A stretch of DNA of 64,000 bases from Escherichia coli. GTDB lineage: Bacteria; Pseudomonadota; Gammaproteobacteria; Enterobacterales; Enterobacteriaceae. Shown here in pieces: positions 1 to 64,000 of this stretch. The first letter of the stretch is position 1. Every line of letters begins with the position of its first letter. Where the stretch lies: assembly GCF_024700885.2 (NCBI RefSeq), contig NZ_CP117016.1; one strand, written 5' to 3'. A program made the position numbers and the translations under genes. The notes beneath the pieces were generated by a model, which searched no databases, was not told the DNA's origin, and worked only from the letters and a program-made list of their open reading frames with translations.

Positions 1-167
1 CTGAAAAGCTGTTTGGAGTTATCATTTATATCGTTTTGGGTTTTATTGCACTCGATTATCGTCGTATGCACAGTCAGCAGGCGCGCACTATTGCCTTCCC
101 GCTGGCGTTGGTGGTGCTGTACATCATCATTAAACTCGCCACCACAAAAGTACCGTTACTGGGGTAA
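1..167 (+). CDS. sirB2: C-terminal fragment of a small inner-membrane protein (SirB2/YchQ-like); 5' end lies outside the window
   Basis: Open frame runs from the window edge to TAA at 165-167; hydrophobic tail (...LALVVLYIIIKLATTKVPLLG); sits directly upstream of sirB1 and kdsA as in K-12. Confidence 0.5.
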   Translation, partial: EKLFGVIIYIVLGFIALDYRRMHSQQARTIAFPLALVVLYIIIKLATTKVPLLG

Positions 168-170
168 GTC

Positions 171-980
171 ATGAGATCGTTAGCTGATTTCGAATTTAAT
201 AAAGCGCCATTGTGCGAAGGCATGATCCTGGCTTGCGAAGCAATCCGCCGCGATTTTCCCTCGCAAGATGTTTACGACGAACTGGAGCGTCTCGTTAGTC
301 TGGCGAAGGAAGAAATCAGCCAGCTTCTGCCTTTAGAAGAGCAGCTGGAAAAACTGATCGCGCTGTTTTACGGCGACTGGGGATTTAAAGCCTCACGCGG
401 CGTTTATCGTCTTTCCGATGCATTATGGCTGGACCAGGTGTTAAAGAATCGACAGGGCAGTGCCGTATCATTAGGTGCCGTTTTATTATGGGTCGCGAAT
501 CGTCTCGATTTGCCGCTGCTGCCGGTGATTTTCCCTACGCAGCTGATATTGCGCATTGAATGTCCGGATGGCGAAATTTGGCTGATTAATCCTTTTAACG
601 GTGAATCGTTAAGCGAACATATGCTGGACGTATGGTTAAAGGGAAATATCAGCCCGTCGGCGGAACTGTTTTATGAAGACCTTGATGAAGCTGATAACAT
701 TGAGGTAATCCGCAAATTGCTGGATACACTCAAAGCTTCGTTGATGGAAGAAAATCAGATGGAGCTGGCGTTACGCACCAGCGAAGCTTTATTACAATTC
801 AACCCGGAAGATCCCTATGAAATTCGCGATCGCGGGTTGATTTATGCGCAACTGGATTGCGAACACGTTGCGTTGAACGATTTAAGTTATTTCGTTGAAC
901 AGTGTCCGGAAGACCCGATCAGCGAAATGATCCGTGCGCAAATAAATAACATCGCGCATAAACATATTGTGCTGCATTAA
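171..980 (+). CDS. sirB1: SirB1/YchA-like protein (269 aa)
   Basis: Track ORF of 269 aa; position between sirB2 and kdsA matches K-12 synteny. Confidence 0.7.
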   Translation: MRSLADFEFNKAPLCEGMILACEAIRRDFPSQDVYDELERLVSLAKEEISQLLPLEEQLEKLIALFYGDWGFKASRGVYRLSDALWLDQVLKNRQGSAVSLGAVLLWVANRLDLPLLPVIFPTQLILRIECPDGEIWLINPFNGESLSEHMLDVWLKGNISPSAELFYEDLDEADNIEVIRKLLDTLKASLMEENQMELALRTSEALLQFNPEDPYEIRDRGLIYAQLDCEHVALNDLSYFVEQCPEDPISEMIRAQINNIAHKHIVLH

Positions 981-1006
981 TTAATCGACATTTTACTCAA
1001 GATTAA

Positions 1007-1870
<864 letters not shown>

Positions 1871-1891
1871 TCTTTTTTGCTTGAAAACTAA

Positions 1892-1921
1892 AGCCTTAGC
1901 GTTCTGCGTTAAGGCTTTTTT
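1892..1921 (+). terminator. Rho-independent terminator downstream of kdsA
   Basis: Inverted repeat aagccttagcg...cgttaaggc followed by a T-run (ttttttc). Confidence 0.55.
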
Positions 1922-2017
1922 CATGGGGCCGGATACAAAAAAGGCCGCAGGCTGTTACTCCTGCGGCCGGTTTCGGGCGCATATTGCCATCACGGCAGCC
2001 TGACGCCCGTTTTCACC

Positions 2018-2125
2018 TTACTTCCGGTTACGCCACCAGCTGACAATCGCTGCGGTAATAATTCCCGCCAGGATCGGTGTTGCCAGGTCGTGCCAGAAAG
2101 TCATGGCAAACTGCGTGAGCGTCAT
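2018..2125 (-). CDS. ldr: Ldr-family type I toxin peptide (35 aa), copy 1
   Basis: Minus-strand ORF ATG(2125)..TAA(2018) translating to MTLTQFAMTFWHDLATPILAGIITAAIVSWWRNRK, matching the Ldr toxin family; below the 60-aa cut-off of the ORF track. Confidence 0.8.
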   Translation of the reverse strand: MTLTQFAMTFWHDLATPILAGIITAAIVSWWRNRK

Positions 2126-2181
2126 ATAGCCGCCTTGTTGTAATGACAACATTTTGCGGCTATTCTTGAATTGTTCTGGTT

Positions 2182-2242
2182 CAAGATTAGCCCCCGTTCT
2201 GTTGTCAGGTTATACCTCTCAACGTGCGGGGGTTTTCTCTTT
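2182..2242 (+). ncRNA. rdl: Putative Rdl antisense RNA (antitoxin), copy 1; ends approximate
   Basis: Plus-strand stem cccccg...cggggg followed by ttttctcttt, 57-117 nt upstream of the ldr start on the opposite strand, i.e. antisense to the ldr leader. 5' end not determinable from sequence. Confidence 0.4.
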
Positions 2243-2552
2243 CCAGCAACCAATGCCACCAGGGATAGAGCCCCCGCAACATTGCGCCTCACCGGATAAC
2301 GCCGGCTTGGTGTGGATACTACGACTCAATTAATCTTCACTTCATCCCTGAAATGTATGCAATGAAGAGTGCATTCCGGTTTTTCAACAGCTGTTACAGT
2401 CGTTTCATGAGTGCTCTGGATGATGCTTCCAGCTCGGGTTGCCAATATTTACTTGTGGAAGAGATAAAGACAAAAAAGGCCGCAGGCTGTTACCCCTGCG
2501 GCCGGTTTCGGGCGCATATTGCCATCACGGCAGCCTGACGCCCGTTTTCACC

Positions 2553-2660
2553 TTACTTCCGGTTACGCCACCAGCTGACAATCGCTGCGGTAATAATTCC
2601 CGCCAGGATCGGTGCTGCCAGGTCGTGCCAGAAAATCATGGCAAACTGCGCGAGCGTCAT
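2553..2660 (-). CDS. ldr: Ldr-family type I toxin peptide (35 aa), copy 2
   Basis: Minus-strand ORF ATG(2660)..TAA(2553) translating to MTLAQFAMIFWHDLAAPILAGIITAAIVSWWRNRK. Confidence 0.8.
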   Translation of the reverse strand: MTLAQFAMIFWHDLAAPILAGIITAAIVSWWRNRK

Positions 2661-2717
2661 ATAGCCGCCTTGTTGTAATGACAACATTTTGCGGCTATTC
2701 TTGAATTGTTGATGGTT

Positions 2718-2778
2718 CAAGATTAGCCCCCGTTCTGTTGTCAGGTTTTACCTCTCAACGTGCGGGGGTTTTCTCTTT
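2718..2778 (+). ncRNA. rdl: Putative Rdl antisense RNA (antitoxin), copy 2; ends approximate
   Basis: Same hairpin+T-run as copy 1, in the second repeat unit. Confidence 0.4.
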
Positions 2779-3065
2779 CCAGCAACCAATGCCACCAGGG
2801 ATAAAGCCCCCGCAACATTGCGCCTCACCGGATAACGCCGGCTTGGTGTGGATACTACGTCTCAATTCATCTTCACTTCATCCCTGAAATGTTTGCAATA
2901 AAGAGTACATTCCGGCTTTTCAACAGCTGTTGCAGTGGTTTCGTGCAGGTTCTGGTACAGGCTCGCAATTCTGATTAACAACCTGTTCAGGTAGTATGAA
3001 GAAATACAATAAGCAGGAATTTATATTATCTCCCCCGATTTCTGTCATCGGAGGAGATATAACTG

Positions 3066-4166
3066 TCAGGCAAATATCGTCATCAAATAGGCGGCAAACA
3101 GTGCGAGATGCGCTGCGCCATTGAGCACGTTAGTACGTCCGGTGGAGAAGGAGATATGGCACAGCACTAAAGAGGCCACCATCACCACCATTTCTGGCGC
3201 ACCAAGTGCAAACTGCAATTCGTTACCCGTCATAAAGGCAATTAGCGTGACGACAGGTACGGTAAGCGAAATGGTTGCTAACACTGAACCAAAGAACAGA
3301 TTCATCGCGCGCTGGACCTGGTTGTTCAACACTGCTTTTAACGCACCTAAACCTTCCGGCGACAGAATCAACAGAGCCACCAGGAAGCCAGTAAAGGCGA
3401 CAGGGGCATTCATGCTGTCGAGCAATGTCTCCAGTGGGCTGGCGTTCATTTTGGTCACCGCAATAACGGCAATCAGATGGACAATCAACCAGATAGCATG
3501 CCACAGGCTGCTATGGGCAGACGGTTTACCGTGGTGCGGGTCGTCATCATCACTGTCATCTTCGTGCTCGTAGACAAATAAACTTTGATGCGTTTTGGTC
3601 TGGATCAGCAAAAATACGCCATACATTGCCGCAGAAATTAATGCTACCAGTAACGCCTGACCGGTTGAAAAATTCGCCGCAGGCAGAGCCATTGGAAATA
3701 CCAGTACGATTATCGCCAGGGGGAACAGCGCAATTAAATACTGCTTGATACCAAACAGATTCATATATTGGGTGGCAAACTTACGACCGCCCAACAATAA
3801 TGAAAAGCCAACCAGCCCACCGGTAACAATCATAATGATTGAATAGAGCGTATCACGCATTAGCGTTGGTGCGGCGTCGCCGGTTGCCATTAAAGCTGAA
3901 ATCAAACTGACTTCAAGAATAACCACTGAAAGGCTAAGAATAAGCGAACCGTAAGGTTCTCCCAGGCGATGGGCTAATACGTCCGCATGACGGACAACAC
4001 TAAAGGCGCTACTTAAAATACCAATAAGAGCAAGAAGATTGATGGCAATGACCACTGGTAGTGTCTGGCTGCTTCCCCACAGGAACAGCACTACCAGCGC
4101 CAGAACCGGGAAAATAAGCGAAGTCTCCTTGTGGCGGGTTTTTACCGCCTCTTGAGCATTTGACAT
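3066..4166 (-). CDS. chaA: Ca2+/H+ (Na+/H+) antiporter ChaA
   Basis: Polytopic membrane ORF; start moved to the internal ATG at 4166 (MSNAQEAVKTRHK..., 366 aa) because the 29-codon upstream extension of the track ORF is low-complexity with no RBS. Confidence 0.85.
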   Translation of the reverse strand: MSNAQEAVKTRHKETSLIFPVLALVVLFLWGSSQTLPVVIAINLLALIGILSSAFSVVRHADVLAHRLGEPYGSLILSLSVVILEVSLISALMATGDAAPTLMRDTLYSIIMIVTGGLVGFSLLLGGRKFATQYMNLFGIKQYLIALFPLAIIVLVFPMALPAANFSTGQALLVALISAAMYGVFLLIQTKTHQSLFVYEHEDDSDDDDPHHGKPSAHSSLWHAIWLIVHLIAVIAVTKMNASPLETLLDSMNAPVAFTGFLVALLILSPEGLGALKAVLNNQVQRAMNLFFGSVLATISLTVPVVTLIAFMTGNELQFALGAPEMVVMVASLVLCHISFSTGRTNVLNGAAHLALFAAYLMTIFA

Positions 4167-4435
4167 TATGGTTATCCCTTTGCAGATGAATTTATCGAAA
4201 ATGTAAAAAATAGGTAGGAAAAATAACAGAAAGTGTCTGGATGTCGGTAACATTTTACGAATTTTTACCCCGCTGTCGATTTTTTACTCATCGGGCCATA
4301 AAAATAAGCAATGCGTTTAGACAATGTTTGTTTTAGCGTTTCTTAAGAAGAGTCTGACATGAAAATTCTTATGTTTTGGCAAGAGTGGATATTGTTGACC
4401 ACACTTAATGTTCAACTTTGTAAAAGGAGTCAACG

Positions 4436-4666
4436 ATGCCGTATAAAACGAAAAGCGATCTGCCGGAAAGCGTAAAGCACGTGCTACCGTCTCATGCTCA
4501 GGATATCTATAAAGAAGCGTTCAACAGCGCATGGGATCAATATAAAGATAAAGAAGATCGGCGTGATGACGCCAGTCGCGAAGAAACCGCGCATAAAGTG
4601 GCCTGGGCTGCTGTGAAGCATGAATATGCCAAAGGGGATGATGATAAATGGCATAAAAAATCGTAA
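4436..4666 (+). CDS. chaB: Cation transport regulator ChaB (76 aa)
   Basis: 76-aa ORF MPYKTKSDLPESVKHV... next to chaA; K-12 synteny. Confidence 0.8.
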   Translation: MPYKTKSDLPESVKHVLPSHAQDIYKEAFNSAWDQYKDKEDRRDDASREETAHKVAWAAVKHEYAKGDDDKWHKKS

Positions 4667-4823
4667 AACCGGTAGCTTAGTTAAAGCTATTCGTGCGGTG
4701 TTGCCTTGCAAGTGGTCCGTGGATTGCATATTGTCCCGTTAGTGGTTTCAAAATGAGCAGTAAAAATGTCCGGAAGACACCAAAAAGTTGTCGCAGGGAA
4801 GTATGCAGTGGCGGAGGTGTAAG

Positions 4824-5519
4824 GTGATAACGCGTGATTTCTTGATGAATGCCGATTGTAAAACGGCATTTGGTGCCATTGAAGAATCACTCTTATGGTC
4901 AGCAGAGCAACGGGCGGCTTCGCTGGCGGCGACGCTGGCTTGTCGACCTGATGAGGGACCGGTGTGGATCTTCGGTTATGGATCGTTGATGTGGAATCCG
5001 GCACTGGAGTTTACCGAGTCGTGCACCGGTACACTGGTTGGATGGCATCGTGCGTTTTGCCTGCGCCTGACCGCCGGGCGCGGGACTGCGCACCAGCCGG
5101 GACGGATGCTTGCACTGAAAGAGGGCGGACGCACCACAGGCGTCGCCTATCGACTGCCAGAAGAGGCGCTGGAGCAGGAACTAACCCTGTTGTGGAAGCG
5201 CGAGATGATTACCGGCTGTTATCTGCCAACCTGGTGTCAGCTTGATCTTGATGATGGACGCACAGTAAACGCCATTGTGTTTATTATGGACCCGCGACAT
5301 CCAGAATATGAATCTGACACTCGCGCTCAGGTCATAGCGCCGTTGATTGCGGCGGCGAGCGGTCCGCTGGGAACCAATGCACAATACTTGTTTTCACTGG
5401 AACAGGAGCTTATCAAACTGGGAATGCAGGACGATGGGCTGAATGATTTGCTGGTATCGGTAAAAAAACTGCTGGCGGAGAATTATCCGGATGGTGTGTT
5501 ACGGCCGGGATTCGCCTGA
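4824..5519 (+). CDS. chaC: ChaC, gamma-glutamylcyclotransferase-like protein
   Basis: ORF with YGSLMWNP motif; GTG start at 4824 preceded by GGAGGTG gives 231 aa; track ORF begins 36 nt earlier. Confidence 0.8.
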   Translation: MITRDFLMNADCKTAFGAIEESLLWSAEQRAASLAATLACRPDEGPVWIFGYGSLMWNPALEFTESCTGTLVGWHRAFCLRLTAGRGTAHQPGRMLALKEGGRTTGVAYRLPEEALEQELTLLWKREMITGCYLPTWCQLDLDDGRTVNAIVFIMDPRHPEYESDTRAQVIAPLIAAASGPLGTNAQYLFSLEQELIKLGMQDDGLNDLLVSVKKLLAENYPDGVLRPGFA

Positions 5520-18902: not shown

Positions 18903-19616
18903 TGATGGTGGTGGGGGAAGGATTACTCAGCGCTGCGCGCTTCACCCTTCGGGTCGTTGCCTGCGGCAACGCTTTCTCGCTGGCGCTCGAGTCGCACCTT
19001 GGTCGAAGCTTCTCATCCTTCCCCGCATGGGCAGAATATTTAATTGCGGATTCGTTTGAGAGTTCACGGACTTTTGAAAAGTGATGGTGGTGGGGGAAGG
19101 ATTACTCAGCGCTGCGCGCTTCGCCCTTCGGGTCGTTGCCTGCGGCAACGCTCTCTCGCTGGCGCTCGAGTCGAACCTTGGTCGAAGCTTCTCATCCTTC
19201 CCCGCATGGGCAGAATATTTAATCGCGGATTCGTTTGAGAGTTCACGGACTTTTGAAAGTGATGGTGGTGGGGGAAGGATTACTCAGCGCTGCGCGCTTC
19301 GCCCTTCGGGTCGTTGCCTGCGGCCACGCTCTCTCGTTGGCGCTCGAGTCGAACCTTGGTCGAAGCTTCTCATCCTTCCCCCGCTTGGGCAGAATATTTA
19401 ATTACGGATTCGTTTGAGAGTTCAGGGACTTTTGAAAGTGATGGTGGTGGGGGAAGGATTACTCAGCGCTGCGCGCTTCGCCCTTCGGGTCGTTGCCTGC
19501 GGCCACGCTCTCTCGCTGGCGCTCGAGTCGAACCTTGGTCGAAGCTTCTCATCCTTCCCCGCATGGGCAGAATATTTAATCGCGGATTCGTTTGAGAGTT
19601 CACGGACTTTTGAAAG
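18903..19616. repeat. rtT: Four tandem ~178-bp repeats of the tyrT-operon distal region (rtT/tpr-type), each starting with a copy of the tRNA-Tyr 3' end
   Basis: Units begin at 18903, 19081, 19259 and 19438 (period 178-179 bp, >95% identical); each starts with gtgatggtggtgggggaaggatt, which is the reverse complement of the tRNA-Tyr acceptor/T-arm 3' end. Confidence 0.85.
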
Positions 19617-19619
19617 TGA

Positions 19620-19704
<85 letters not shown>

Positions 19705-19738
19705 AGGGGTAATTCAAATTTTGAGGTAATGCTTGAGA

Positions 19739-19823
<85 letters not shown>

Positions 19824-49873: not shown

Positions 49874-50042
49874 GATGGCAGCCTCCGCGATGAATTTGAT
49901 TAACTCACCACCGAGGTTTTCCACGACCATAAGGGTGGTGAGACGTACAGGGGTGGAAATACCGGTCATCACGGAACCCGGCCAGCCTTGCGGCTGCCCT
50001 GCACGCCCCACCATAATGCGAATGTGGCTGTGCTTAACGCAT

Positions 50043-50064
50043 AAAAAAACCGCCTGAGCGCGGT
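50043..50064 (-). terminator. Rho-independent terminator downstream of the DicF-like sRNA
   Basis: On the minus strand, aaccgcgctcaggcggtt hairpin followed by TTTTTTT. Confidence 0.55.
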
Positions 50065-50352
50065 TATGCGCCGTGAATGATTTCGGGTTTCCACGCCCGG
50101 CACCCGTTTTATGAGGTGCAGGTGCACTATAATTCCACCCGTTCTGGTTTTCAATAGCTACATTCAACATTTTCTCTACCTTTCATCACCGAAGTGAACT
50201 TTGTTGATGCGGTGCCTGGTGCCTCCAGGTGATGTTAACCAGTTAACAATTAACGCCGGATACAGAGAATCCACCCATAACACTGTTTTTGGTTTTAACT
50301 GTTCCGCGTGCGCTGAGCCGCATTCACCGCATCACAAAATTCACTTTAAAAA

Positions 50353-50405
50353 GGGCGGCAGAGCAGTCACGGAGTAAAACTGATACCGCCAAAAGTCACC
50401 AGAAA
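50353..50405 (-). ncRNA. dicF: DicF-like sRNA (cell-division inhibitor sRNA of Qin-type prophages)
   Basis: Minus-strand 53 nt TTTCTGGTGACTTTTGGCGGTATCAGTTTTACTCCGTGACTGCTCTGCCGCCC differs at one position from the K-12 DicF sequence as I recall it; followed by a T-run. Confidence 0.65.
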
Positions 50406-58012: not shown

Positions 58013-58223
58013 TTTCATATTGGCGAGGTGACGGGAGTTAAGTAGAATGGCTGCGGGTGCTTGAGGCTATCTGTCTCAGGCATGAACACCAAAGGCAGAT
58101 AGAGAAAAGCCCCAGTTAACATTACGCGTCCTGCAAGACGCTTAACATTAATCTGAGGCCATATCTATGCTCTACACACGTAGGTTAGCCTCTTACGTGC
58201 CGAAAGGCAAGGAGAAGCAGGCT

Positions 58224-58379
58224 ATGAAGCAGCAAAAGGCGATGCTAATCGCCCTGATCGTCATCTGTTTAACCGTCATGGTGACGGCACTGGTAACGAG
58301 GAAAGACCTCTGCGAGGTACGAATCCGAACCGGCCAGACGGAGGTCGCTGTCTTCACAGCTTACGAACCTGAGGAGTAA
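58224..58379 (+). CDS. hok: Hok/Gef-family type I toxin (51 aa), near-identical to HokD/RelF
   Basis: MKQQKAMLIALIVICLTVMVTALVTRKDLCEVRIRTGQTEVAVFTAYEPEE; the in-frame upstream extension in the track (from 58167) is not the toxin start. Confidence 0.85.
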   Translation: MKQQKAMLIALIVICLTVMVTALVTRKDLCEVRIRTGQTEVAVFTAYEPEE

Positions 58380-62757: not shown

Positions 62758-62833
62758 GGCCCTTTAGCTCAGTGGTGAGAGCGAGCGACTCATAATCGCC
62801 AGGTCGCTGGTTCAAATCCAGCAAGGGCCACCA
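62758..62833 (+). tRNA. Prophage tRNA with CAU anticodon (Ile2/lysidine-type, ileZ-like; Met not excluded)
   Basis: 76 nt folding into a cloverleaf by hand: acceptor GGCCCTT/AAGGGCC, D-stem GCTC/GAGC, anticodon loop CTCATAA, T-arm GCTGG-TTCAAAT-CCAGC, 3' ACCA. Confidence 0.8.
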
Positions 62834-62933
62834 TCACAAACCGCCATTAGCTTATCAGGAAGAGCAGACGACACGATAACAGGGTTGTTGGTGCGGGGGC
62901 GGGTCCCCGATGGCGGTCCATTATCGGTATTCA

Positions 62934-63010
62934 GCGTTGTTAGCTCAGCCGGACAGAGCAATTGCCTTCTAAGCAATCGGTCACTGGTTCGAATCCAGTA
63001 CAGCGCGCCA
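62934..63010 (+). tRNA. Prophage tRNA-Arg (UCU)
   Basis: 77 nt: acceptor GCGTTGT/ACAGCGC, D-arm TAGCTCAGCCGGACAGAGCA, anticodon loop CTTCTAA, T-arm ACTGG-TTCGAAT-CCAGT, 3' GCCA; related to argU-type tRNAs. Confidence 0.8.
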
Positions 63011-63474: not shown

Positions 63475-64000
63475 ATACATATCTGGATTATCACCGGTTA
63501 CGGTAAAAAGTGATTGCTTACTGTTTTTGTGAATGGCATTGCAGCAGCCGGATAATGTCAGTGCTGGCTGACGGTGTGCTGGTGGCGGGTGTGGTGGTTG
63601 CTGCTTTCCCGTTGCTGAAAAAGAAAACGCCAGACTGTTAGCCGGGTATCAGTTAGCGGGAGAAATTTTTAAATACTTCACAATTCAGGCGGTTGACTGT
63701 TGTCTGGTTTGCGGGGAGTTTGTTAAAAGAAACTGGCATGGTGAATCCCCCTGTGCGGAGGGGCAATCAGCGAGTAGGTATATGGGATAATCGCGGATTC
63801 AGGTGCTGGTACTGAATTCACCGGGAGGCACCCGGCACCATGCAATGGCACATAGCGCCACTCTCCAGCCCCTCTCCGGAGGGGCTGTTTATATTGATTT
63901 TGTCAGATGTGAGTAAACTCCTTATGGACTTTGTTGTTTTAGCCCATAAGGACATATTTGCAGAGTGCAACGGTTATTAAAGCATTCATTCAATACGTTA

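Follow-up and report, generated by a model that had tools for sequence, protein, structure and literature searches.

The interval between kdsA and chaA in the Escherichia coli window analysed here (the whole stretch of 64,000 nucleotides taken from contig NZ_CP117016.1) almost certainly contains a tandem pair of ldr/rdl type I toxin-antitoxin modules, both intact, and represents a natural two-unit allele of the E. coli LDR array. We found nothing at the sequence level that opposes this reading, and the combined anatomy of repeats, reading frames and antisense RNAs could not arise by chance. The feature itself is already known; the locus carries one, two or three copies depending on the strain, and the two-copy form is ordinary and common. 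The window shows the hallmarks of an LDR array, in that kdsA and chaA are separated by tandem units of about 530 bp, every one of which pairs an ldr gene with an rdl gene. In K-12 MG1655, the same interval contains three units, namely ldrA/rdlA, ldrB/rdlB and ldrC/rdlC, in agreement with an earlier note on this DNA. Positions 1-5469 of the window match the finished genome of E. coli strain 1190 (NZ_CP023386.1) at 100% identity with 0 mismatches, a match that is perhaps not independent, as strain 1190 may be the window's own source. The gene order in the strain 1190 record is sirB2/ychQ, sirB1/ychA (171-980), kdsA, two Ldr toxin genes, chaA, chaB and chaC. The array and its flanks are arranged as follows:

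1016-1870 (+): kdsA, the left flank, outside the repeat, placed by its reading frame and by the annotation of the identical strain 1190 locus.
1935-2469: LDR unit 1, 535 bp, nearest to K-12 LDR-A, delimited by direct-repeat families D1 and D2 and by alignment with the K-12 units.
2470-2940: LDR unit 2, the last unit, in which inner-unit homology stops at about 2937-2940.
3066-4166 (-): chaA, the right flank, outside the repeat, placed by its reading frame and by the annotation of the identical strain 1190 locus.

The repeat search paired 1935-2175 with 2470-2710 at 98% and 2177-2476 with 2713-3012 at 86%, with start-to-start distances of 535 and 536 bp, respectively. Two direct repeats, at 1935-2469 and 2470 to about 2940, are thereby placed between the flanking genes that the earlier note had named. 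The tandem arrangement it described stands; its unit length of about 534 bp does not, as the period is 535/536 bp. Tandem Repeats Finder returned nothing at the array because this 535-bp period exceeds its 500-bp limit, and the blank result is not evidence against the repeat. Aligned with each other, the two units are 96.6% identical for ~468 nt from their left ends, with 16 differences (1935-2402 against 2470-2938). Beyond about 2937-2940, unit 2 drifts into chaA-proximal sequence, the same as K-12 LDR-C does in an alignment of all five units (two here, three from K-12), so that 2940 marks the true end of homology. The overall span of 1938-2940 first given for the feature is accordingly accurate, position 1938 lying within the T-run of the ldr-1 mRNA terminator.

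Compared to the K-12 units, unit 1 shows 11 differences to LDR-A (in 535 positions), 20 to LDR-B and 75 to LDR-C. Unit 2 differs from LDR-C at 16 positions over 550 nt, and its first 390 nt contain only 3 differences to LDR-A. Judged by these alignments, unit 2 is a mosaic, LDR-A-like in its left part and LDR-C-like at its right end. Such mosaic differences among the units fit unequal crossing-over together with gene conversion in a tandem array, and the copy number (1, 2 or 3) would shift as the 535-bp units recombine unequally or convert one another. The locus, flanking genes, unit length and internal layout are all shared with K-12 LDR-A, -B and -C. In contrast to the three units there, the window has two, and its unit 2 combines the mosaic structure with a UUGAUGG Rdl 5' end that is absent from K-12 and common elsewhere.

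Each unit encodes one Ldr toxin on the minus strand:

2018-2125 (-): ldr-1 coding sequence, 35 aa, MTLTQFAMTFWHDLATPILAGIITAAIVSWWRNRK, WP_000176714.1 in strain 1190, with a PF13940 match.
2553-2660 (-): ldr-2 coding sequence, 35 aa, MTLAQFAMIFWHDLAAPILAGIITAAIVSWWRNRK, WP_000170955.1, identical to K-12 LdrA/LdrC.

Both reading frames are full-length, in agreement with the initial description of an intact 35-aa Ldr ORF per unit, and both peptides align with residues 1-35 on positions 1-35 of the Pfam profile PF13940 (Ldr_toxin), well above its cut-off of 27 (84.5 bits for Ldr-1, 86 bits for Ldr-2). An NCBIfam profile search of the same peptides gave no matching model. Ldr-1 and Ldr-2 agree at 32/35 residues, and a peptide comparison confirmed T4/A4, T9/I9 and T16/A16 as the only toxin differences; it is Ldr-1 that carries T4, T9 and T16 relative to the K-12 peptides. 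The Fst/Ldr signature combines a P-x-x-x-G motif in a hydrophobic helix with a conserved Trp that follows the helix and a basic C-terminal cluster (PMC2887945, PMC7472228). Both window peptides display it, with the stretch A(T/A)PILAGIITAAIVSWWRNRK, P-x-x-x-G (P17 to G21), W30/W31 and an RNRK tail. The exact sequence of Ldr-1 occurs on 972 public contigs and that of Ldr-2 on at least 1000, both under the Ldr name. The earlier note had held that these genes are missed by length-filtered ORF callers. This is only partly so, as RefSeq records produced by NCBI's current pipeline include both Ldr peptides; it is the Rdl RNA that is left out beyond K-12. The RefSeq record of strain 1190, for instance, names the Ldr peptides and lacks the Rdl RNAs, while rdlA-C are listed only in the curated K-12 record.

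The closest solved structure to the Ldr peptides, and the sole solved relative, is LdrD (5LBJ, E 1.4e-9). In K-12, overproduction of LdrD is toxic and is relieved by RdlD (PMC4147584). The first reported effects of the family members differ: LdrA causes an ATP drop within minutes, whereas LdrD leads to nucleoid condensation (PMC8309996). Ldr is a single-helix peptide of the inner membrane; in K-12, too much of it collapses ATP (LdrA) or condenses the nucleoid (LdrD), and growth stops. Growth-arrest activity would be expected for Ldr-2, which is identical to the LdrA that is toxic in K-12, and may extend to Ldr-1 (T4/T9/T16). The experimentally characterised ldrD/rdlD of K-12 shares its architecture and its Pfam and Rfam families with the window units, and its leader, Rdl target and 3' UTR segments are nearly invariant with theirs. 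It lies at another locus (bcsG-yhjV), and only 18-20/35 residues of LdrD match the window peptides. A wider relationship links Ldr to Fst/RNAI-RNAII (par of pAD1) and its Gram-positive relatives; all fall in one toxin superfamily, marked by P-x-x-x-G within a TM helix, by a conserved Trp and by a charged C-terminus. In Fst systems, however, the antisense RNA reaches across the toxin gene's 3' end, and regulation differs (PMC2887945, PMC7472228).

On the opposite strand, each unit contains an antisense RNA preceded by a putative promoter:

2138-2166 (+): rdl-1 putative promoter, TTGTAA-17 nt-TATTCT, which stops 6 nt short of the Rdl 5' end.
2173-2238 (+): rdl-1 antisense RNA, RF01813 rdlD, 87 bits, E 5e-17, model 1-66.
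2673-2701 (+): rdl-2 putative promoter, TTGTAA-17 nt-TATTCT, which stops 6 nt short of the Rdl 5' end.
2709-2774 (+): rdl-2 antisense RNA, RF01813 rdlD, 83.6 bits, E 3.9e-16, model 1-66.

The opposite-strand hairpins with T-runs had been taken for Rdl from their appearance. An Rfam scan bears this out, both RNAs being full-length and above the gathering score of 50 for RF01813 (rdlD). Their 5' ends lie at positions homologous to those of annotated K-12 rdl genes (rdlA in the case of rdl-1). As in K-12, each is predicted to adopt the consensus hairpin of the family: ~16 unpaired nt at the 5' end precede a long, imperfect stem capped by a 3-nt apical loop, and a U-run follows. The predicted fold of rdl-1 has -26.7 kcal/mol (z -5.3) and the apical loop UAU, while that of rdl-2 has -27.3 kcal/mol (z -4.5) and the loop UUU; one apical-loop base differs between rdl-1 and K-12 rdlA. 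The 66-nt Rdl is fully complementary to the ldr 5' UTR about 48-114 nt upstream of the AUG (AUGs at 2125 and 2660), and the ldr ribosome-binding site is therefore not covered by it. The published layout is the same, with Rdl opposite the ldr 5' UTR and clear of the ribosome-binding site and start codon (PMC4147584). Rdl would be an unstable ~60-nt repressor of Ldr synthesis, read here from the signals of a putative promoter and a terminator hairpin.

The 5' end of rdl-2 reads UUGAUGG with a 1-nt insertion near 2711-2713, compared to GUUCUGG. We considered this insertion as a peculiarity of the present strain and rejected the idea, as the UUGAUGG variant is also found in six other strains, is widespread (E. 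coli 536 and IAI39 included), and 55-aa ORFs built on the insertion have already been deposited. A separate alteration is seen in E. coli strain 122 (O157-like), where the second LDR unit has lost 6 nt (at ~2725-2735 in that strain's own numbering) from the 5' arm of its Rdl hairpin (AGCCCCCGTTCTGTTG to AGCCCTGTTG). This deletion could weaken the antitoxin hairpin while the Ldr ORF stays intact.

The ldr mRNAs are bounded by the following signals:

1938-1968 (-): ldr-1 mRNA intrinsic terminator, GGCCGCAGG ... CCTGCGGCC followed by a T-run, inverted repeat I1.
2316-2321 (-): ldr-1 putative -10 box TAGTAT, with a transcript start placed near 2308, for a predicted mRNA of ~371 nt.
2473-2503 (-): ldr-2 mRNA intrinsic terminator, with a 9-bp GC-rich stem (2503-2478) and T-run, inverted repeat I3.
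2852-2857 (-): ldr-2 putative -10 box TAGTAT, with a transcript start placed near 2844 by the same reasoning as in unit 1.

Every unit therefore comprises two elements of hairpin plus T-run, the Rdl terminator (+) and the ldr mRNA terminator (-). The ldr-1 terminator stem (1968-1943) has 9 pairs, 8 of them G-C, and is kept in K-12 LDR-A to LDR-D. When A/B/C-type units are compared with K-12 LDR-D, homology starts at CGTAG(T/A)ATC (TAGTAT/TAGAAT) and resumes ~7 nt further on at CAAGCCGG. This pattern points to the ldr -10 boxes at 2321-2316 and 2857-2852 and to 5' ends near 2308 and 2844. The rdl promoters match the consensus at 8/12 positions and are invariant across all K-12 units; that of rdl-1 overlaps the opposite-strand ldr translation-initiation region. 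A consensus promoter scan of the locus, which requires 9/12 positions, found no site, so the promoters listed here are placed by position and conservation only. Taken in this way, each unit would produce an ldr mRNA of ~370 nt, composed of a ~183-nt 5' UTR, a 35-codon ORF and a strong terminator, with putative ends.

To place the two-unit state within the species, the joined flanks without the repeats were searched against 5,426 complete E. coli genomes, and the span was read for each match in a sample of 59 usable complete genomes taken at even steps down the ranking. One-unit spans (5453-5471 bp) were present in 16/59, two-unit spans (5997-6001 bp) in 19 and three-unit spans (6533-6536 bp) in 21. 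The kdsA-chaA spacer carried IS insertions in 3/59, namely IS200C in two and a member of the IS5/ISKpn26 family in one. Where annotations were opened, the number of annotated Ldr genes equalled the span-based count (6/6 sampled genomes). The earlier suspicion that copy number varies between strains is thus borne out, and the two-unit state is common and present in several lineages. Numbers of ldr genes were tabulated in 2006, with 4 in K-12, 3 in CFT073, 3-4 in O157, 3-5 in Shigella and 2 in Salmonella (PMC1635323), and their variation was put down in 2010 to duplications and losses in particular lineages (PMC2887945). In 2020, a study encountered a single unit at this locus in strain NRG857c and guessed at an assembly error (PMC7232551). 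Contrary to that guess, our survey suggests that the one-unit allele is real and frequent.

The same doubt applies to the window, where a three-unit, K-12-like array might have collapsed into two during assembly. Units of 535 bp that are ~97% alike are not always resolvable by short reads alone, and the authors of the NRG857c study guessed likewise for their one-unit strain (PMC7232551). The units are nonetheless distinguishable, with 16 differences in the first 468 aligned nt and unlike right ends. Collapse is made unlikely by the complete identity of 1-5469 to the finished genome of strain 1190 (0 mismatches, although perhaps not an independent genome). The finished genome elppa4 likewise spans 6000 bp at this locus, and its flanks are 100% identical. 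Moreover, the two-unit span recurs in 19/59 complete genomes of many lineages and the one-unit span in 16, with six counts confirmed by annotation. The earlier note had named an assembly artefact as one of two outcomes that would overturn its reading; with the two-unit state found in so many complete assemblies, we regard such an artefact as exceedingly improbable.

Alternatively, one or both units could be decaying relics without a working toxin or antitoxin. Chromosomal type I loci sometimes degenerate (PMC2887945), and the 6-nt Rdl-stem deletion in the O157-like strain indicates that decay does occur at this locus. By sequence, Ldr-1 might be read in the same sense, as it has three substitutions relative to LdrA (A4T, I9T, A16T), and so might unit 2, where the 1-nt insertion at the Rdl 5' end joins an upstream UUG ORF in frame with ldr. 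But in Ldr-1 small, polar and hydrophobic residues are exchanged conservatively for one another, all within the N-terminal half, and the exact peptide is found on 972 contigs, while the UUGAUGG variant of unit 2 is widespread. Ldr-2 is the same peptide as K-12 LdrA, which is experimentally toxic (PMC8309996). In both units the ORFs, terminators, putative promoters and Rdl hairpins are all intact and score like the K-12 copies. Decay of either unit is accordingly improbable in our view, and we retain the reading of two intact modules.

Literature on the system establishes a stable ldr mRNA, an unstable antisense RNA, toxicity of the peptide and its repression by Rdl (PMC4147584, PMC8309996, PMC1635323). 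The mechanism by which Rdl blocks translation has been described as "currently unknown" (PMC8309996), and a hok/mok-like coupling via a leader ORF, ldrX, has been proposed by Gerdes and Wagner (PMC4147584, PMC8309996, PMC1635323). In the window units, Rdl would pair with the ldr leader and stop Ldr translation, leaving the Shine-Dalgarno sequence and AUG uncovered. By analogy with hok/sok, the most likely route is that ldr translation depends on a reading frame or hairpin in the leader and that Rdl blocks this element. We therefore word the mechanism as a putative hok-like antisense block of some leader element required for ldr translation. The Rdl-ldr duplex is probably cleaved.

Predicted folds of the full-length ldr mRNAs reach -158.8 and -163.1 kcal/mol, with z of -5.6 and -6.2 against shuffles. 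In these models the Shine-Dalgarno/AUG region is paired with the 3' UTR, and the UTR segments so paired are invariant between A/B/C-type units and LDR-D, whereas the coding region between them has diverged. A consensus fold of six ldr mRNAs contains compensatory changes in only 2/124 pairs, reflecting conservation and not covariation, so that covariation neither supports nor refutes the predicted structure. For a coupling leader ORF such as ldrX there are two candidates, and neither is kept in every unit. One is a 25-codon AUG ORF at mRNA positions 27-104, present in 5/6 units and frameshifted in K-12 LDR-C. The other starts at a UUG after GGGGG inside the Rdl target; in K-12 A, B and C, as in unit 1, it terminates at the ldr AUG (AUAUGA). 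The UUG ORF of unit 2 (2553-2720, -) is instead in frame with ldr because of the 1-nt insertion at the Rdl 5' end, resulting in a 55-aa ORF, MNHQQFKNSRKMLSLQQGGYM-Ldr. Protein entries for nearly the same 55-aa ORF exist for E. coli 536 and IAI39.

A weak resemblance to the hok leader emerged from the Rfam comparison. Read in mRNA sense, the ldr leaders at 2123-2275 (-) and 2658-2811 (-) give full-length matches to RF01794 that end at the ldr AUG. At 30.1 and 27 bits, these matches stay below the gathering score of 59 and were obtained at a relaxed threshold (E ~1e-4 for 1.15 kb). A hok/sok locus is located in the same window at 58055-58229 (+), with 114.7 bits to RF01794, and the ORF at 58167-58379 (+) is an intact Mok/Hok reading frame (…MKQQKAMLIALIVICLTVMVTALVTRKDLCEVRIRTGQTEVAVFTAYEPEE). 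At this genuine locus, the RF01794 "sok" match follows the sense of the hok mRNA and stops at the hok AUG, so RF01794 is really a hok-leader model. The sequence thus hints that the ldr leader weakly resembles a hok leader. In both systems the toxin mRNA is stable and its leader long, and a short, unstable cis-antisense RNA, single-stranded at its 5' tail, is aimed at the leader and not at the toxin start. Leader-ORF coupling has been proposed for both, through mok in hok/sok and ldrX in ldr (PMC4147584). However, Hok of plasmid R1 and of enterobacterial chromosomes is ~50 aa long, belongs to PF01848 and is unrelated to Ldr, and the two systems have been called analogous, not homologous (PMC1635323). 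The window units fall outside the hok/sok family, since their toxin is Ldr rather than Hok and their RF01794 scores lie below the gathering score. By analogy, ldr/rdl may work like hok/sok without belonging to that family.

Further elements were noted elsewhere in the window. Four tandem RtT repeats (123-137.5 bits) at 18906-19823 (-) adjoin two tRNA genes in a tyrT/tyrV-like layout. A prophage-type small RNA cluster at 49931-50404 (-) comprises a C4 antisense RNA (49931-50018), isrK (50043-50119) and DicF (50353-50404). Two tRNA genes, followed by the sRNA STnc100 (132 bits), are located at 62758-63007 (+) and 63707-63896 (+).

The units within an array differ in the middle base of the Rdl apical loop (A/U/G), in the variable 5' tail, including the 1-nt insertion, and in the N-terminal Ldr residues T4/T9/T16. 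There is a slim chance that these differences make each Rdl specific to its own ldr mRNA, and that UUGAUGG units could also yield, from the upstream UUG frame joined to ldr, an extended 55-residue peptide with altered toxicity. The differences may equally be neutral. If Rdl were cognate-specific, arrays of one, two and three units would be functionally distinct sets of non-cross-reacting modules. Beyond correct annotation, the import of the present allele is small, given that the locus, toxin, antisense RNA and variation in ldr number were published between 2002 and 2010 (PMC4147584, PMC1635323, PMC2887945). The annotation gap concerns the antitoxin, as RefSeq genomes other than K-12 name the Ldr peptides and omit the Rdl RNAs. 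As one-, two- and three-unit alleles are all common in finished genomes, an array with fewer units than K-12, such as that of NRG857c (PMC7232551), should not be presumed to be an assembly error.
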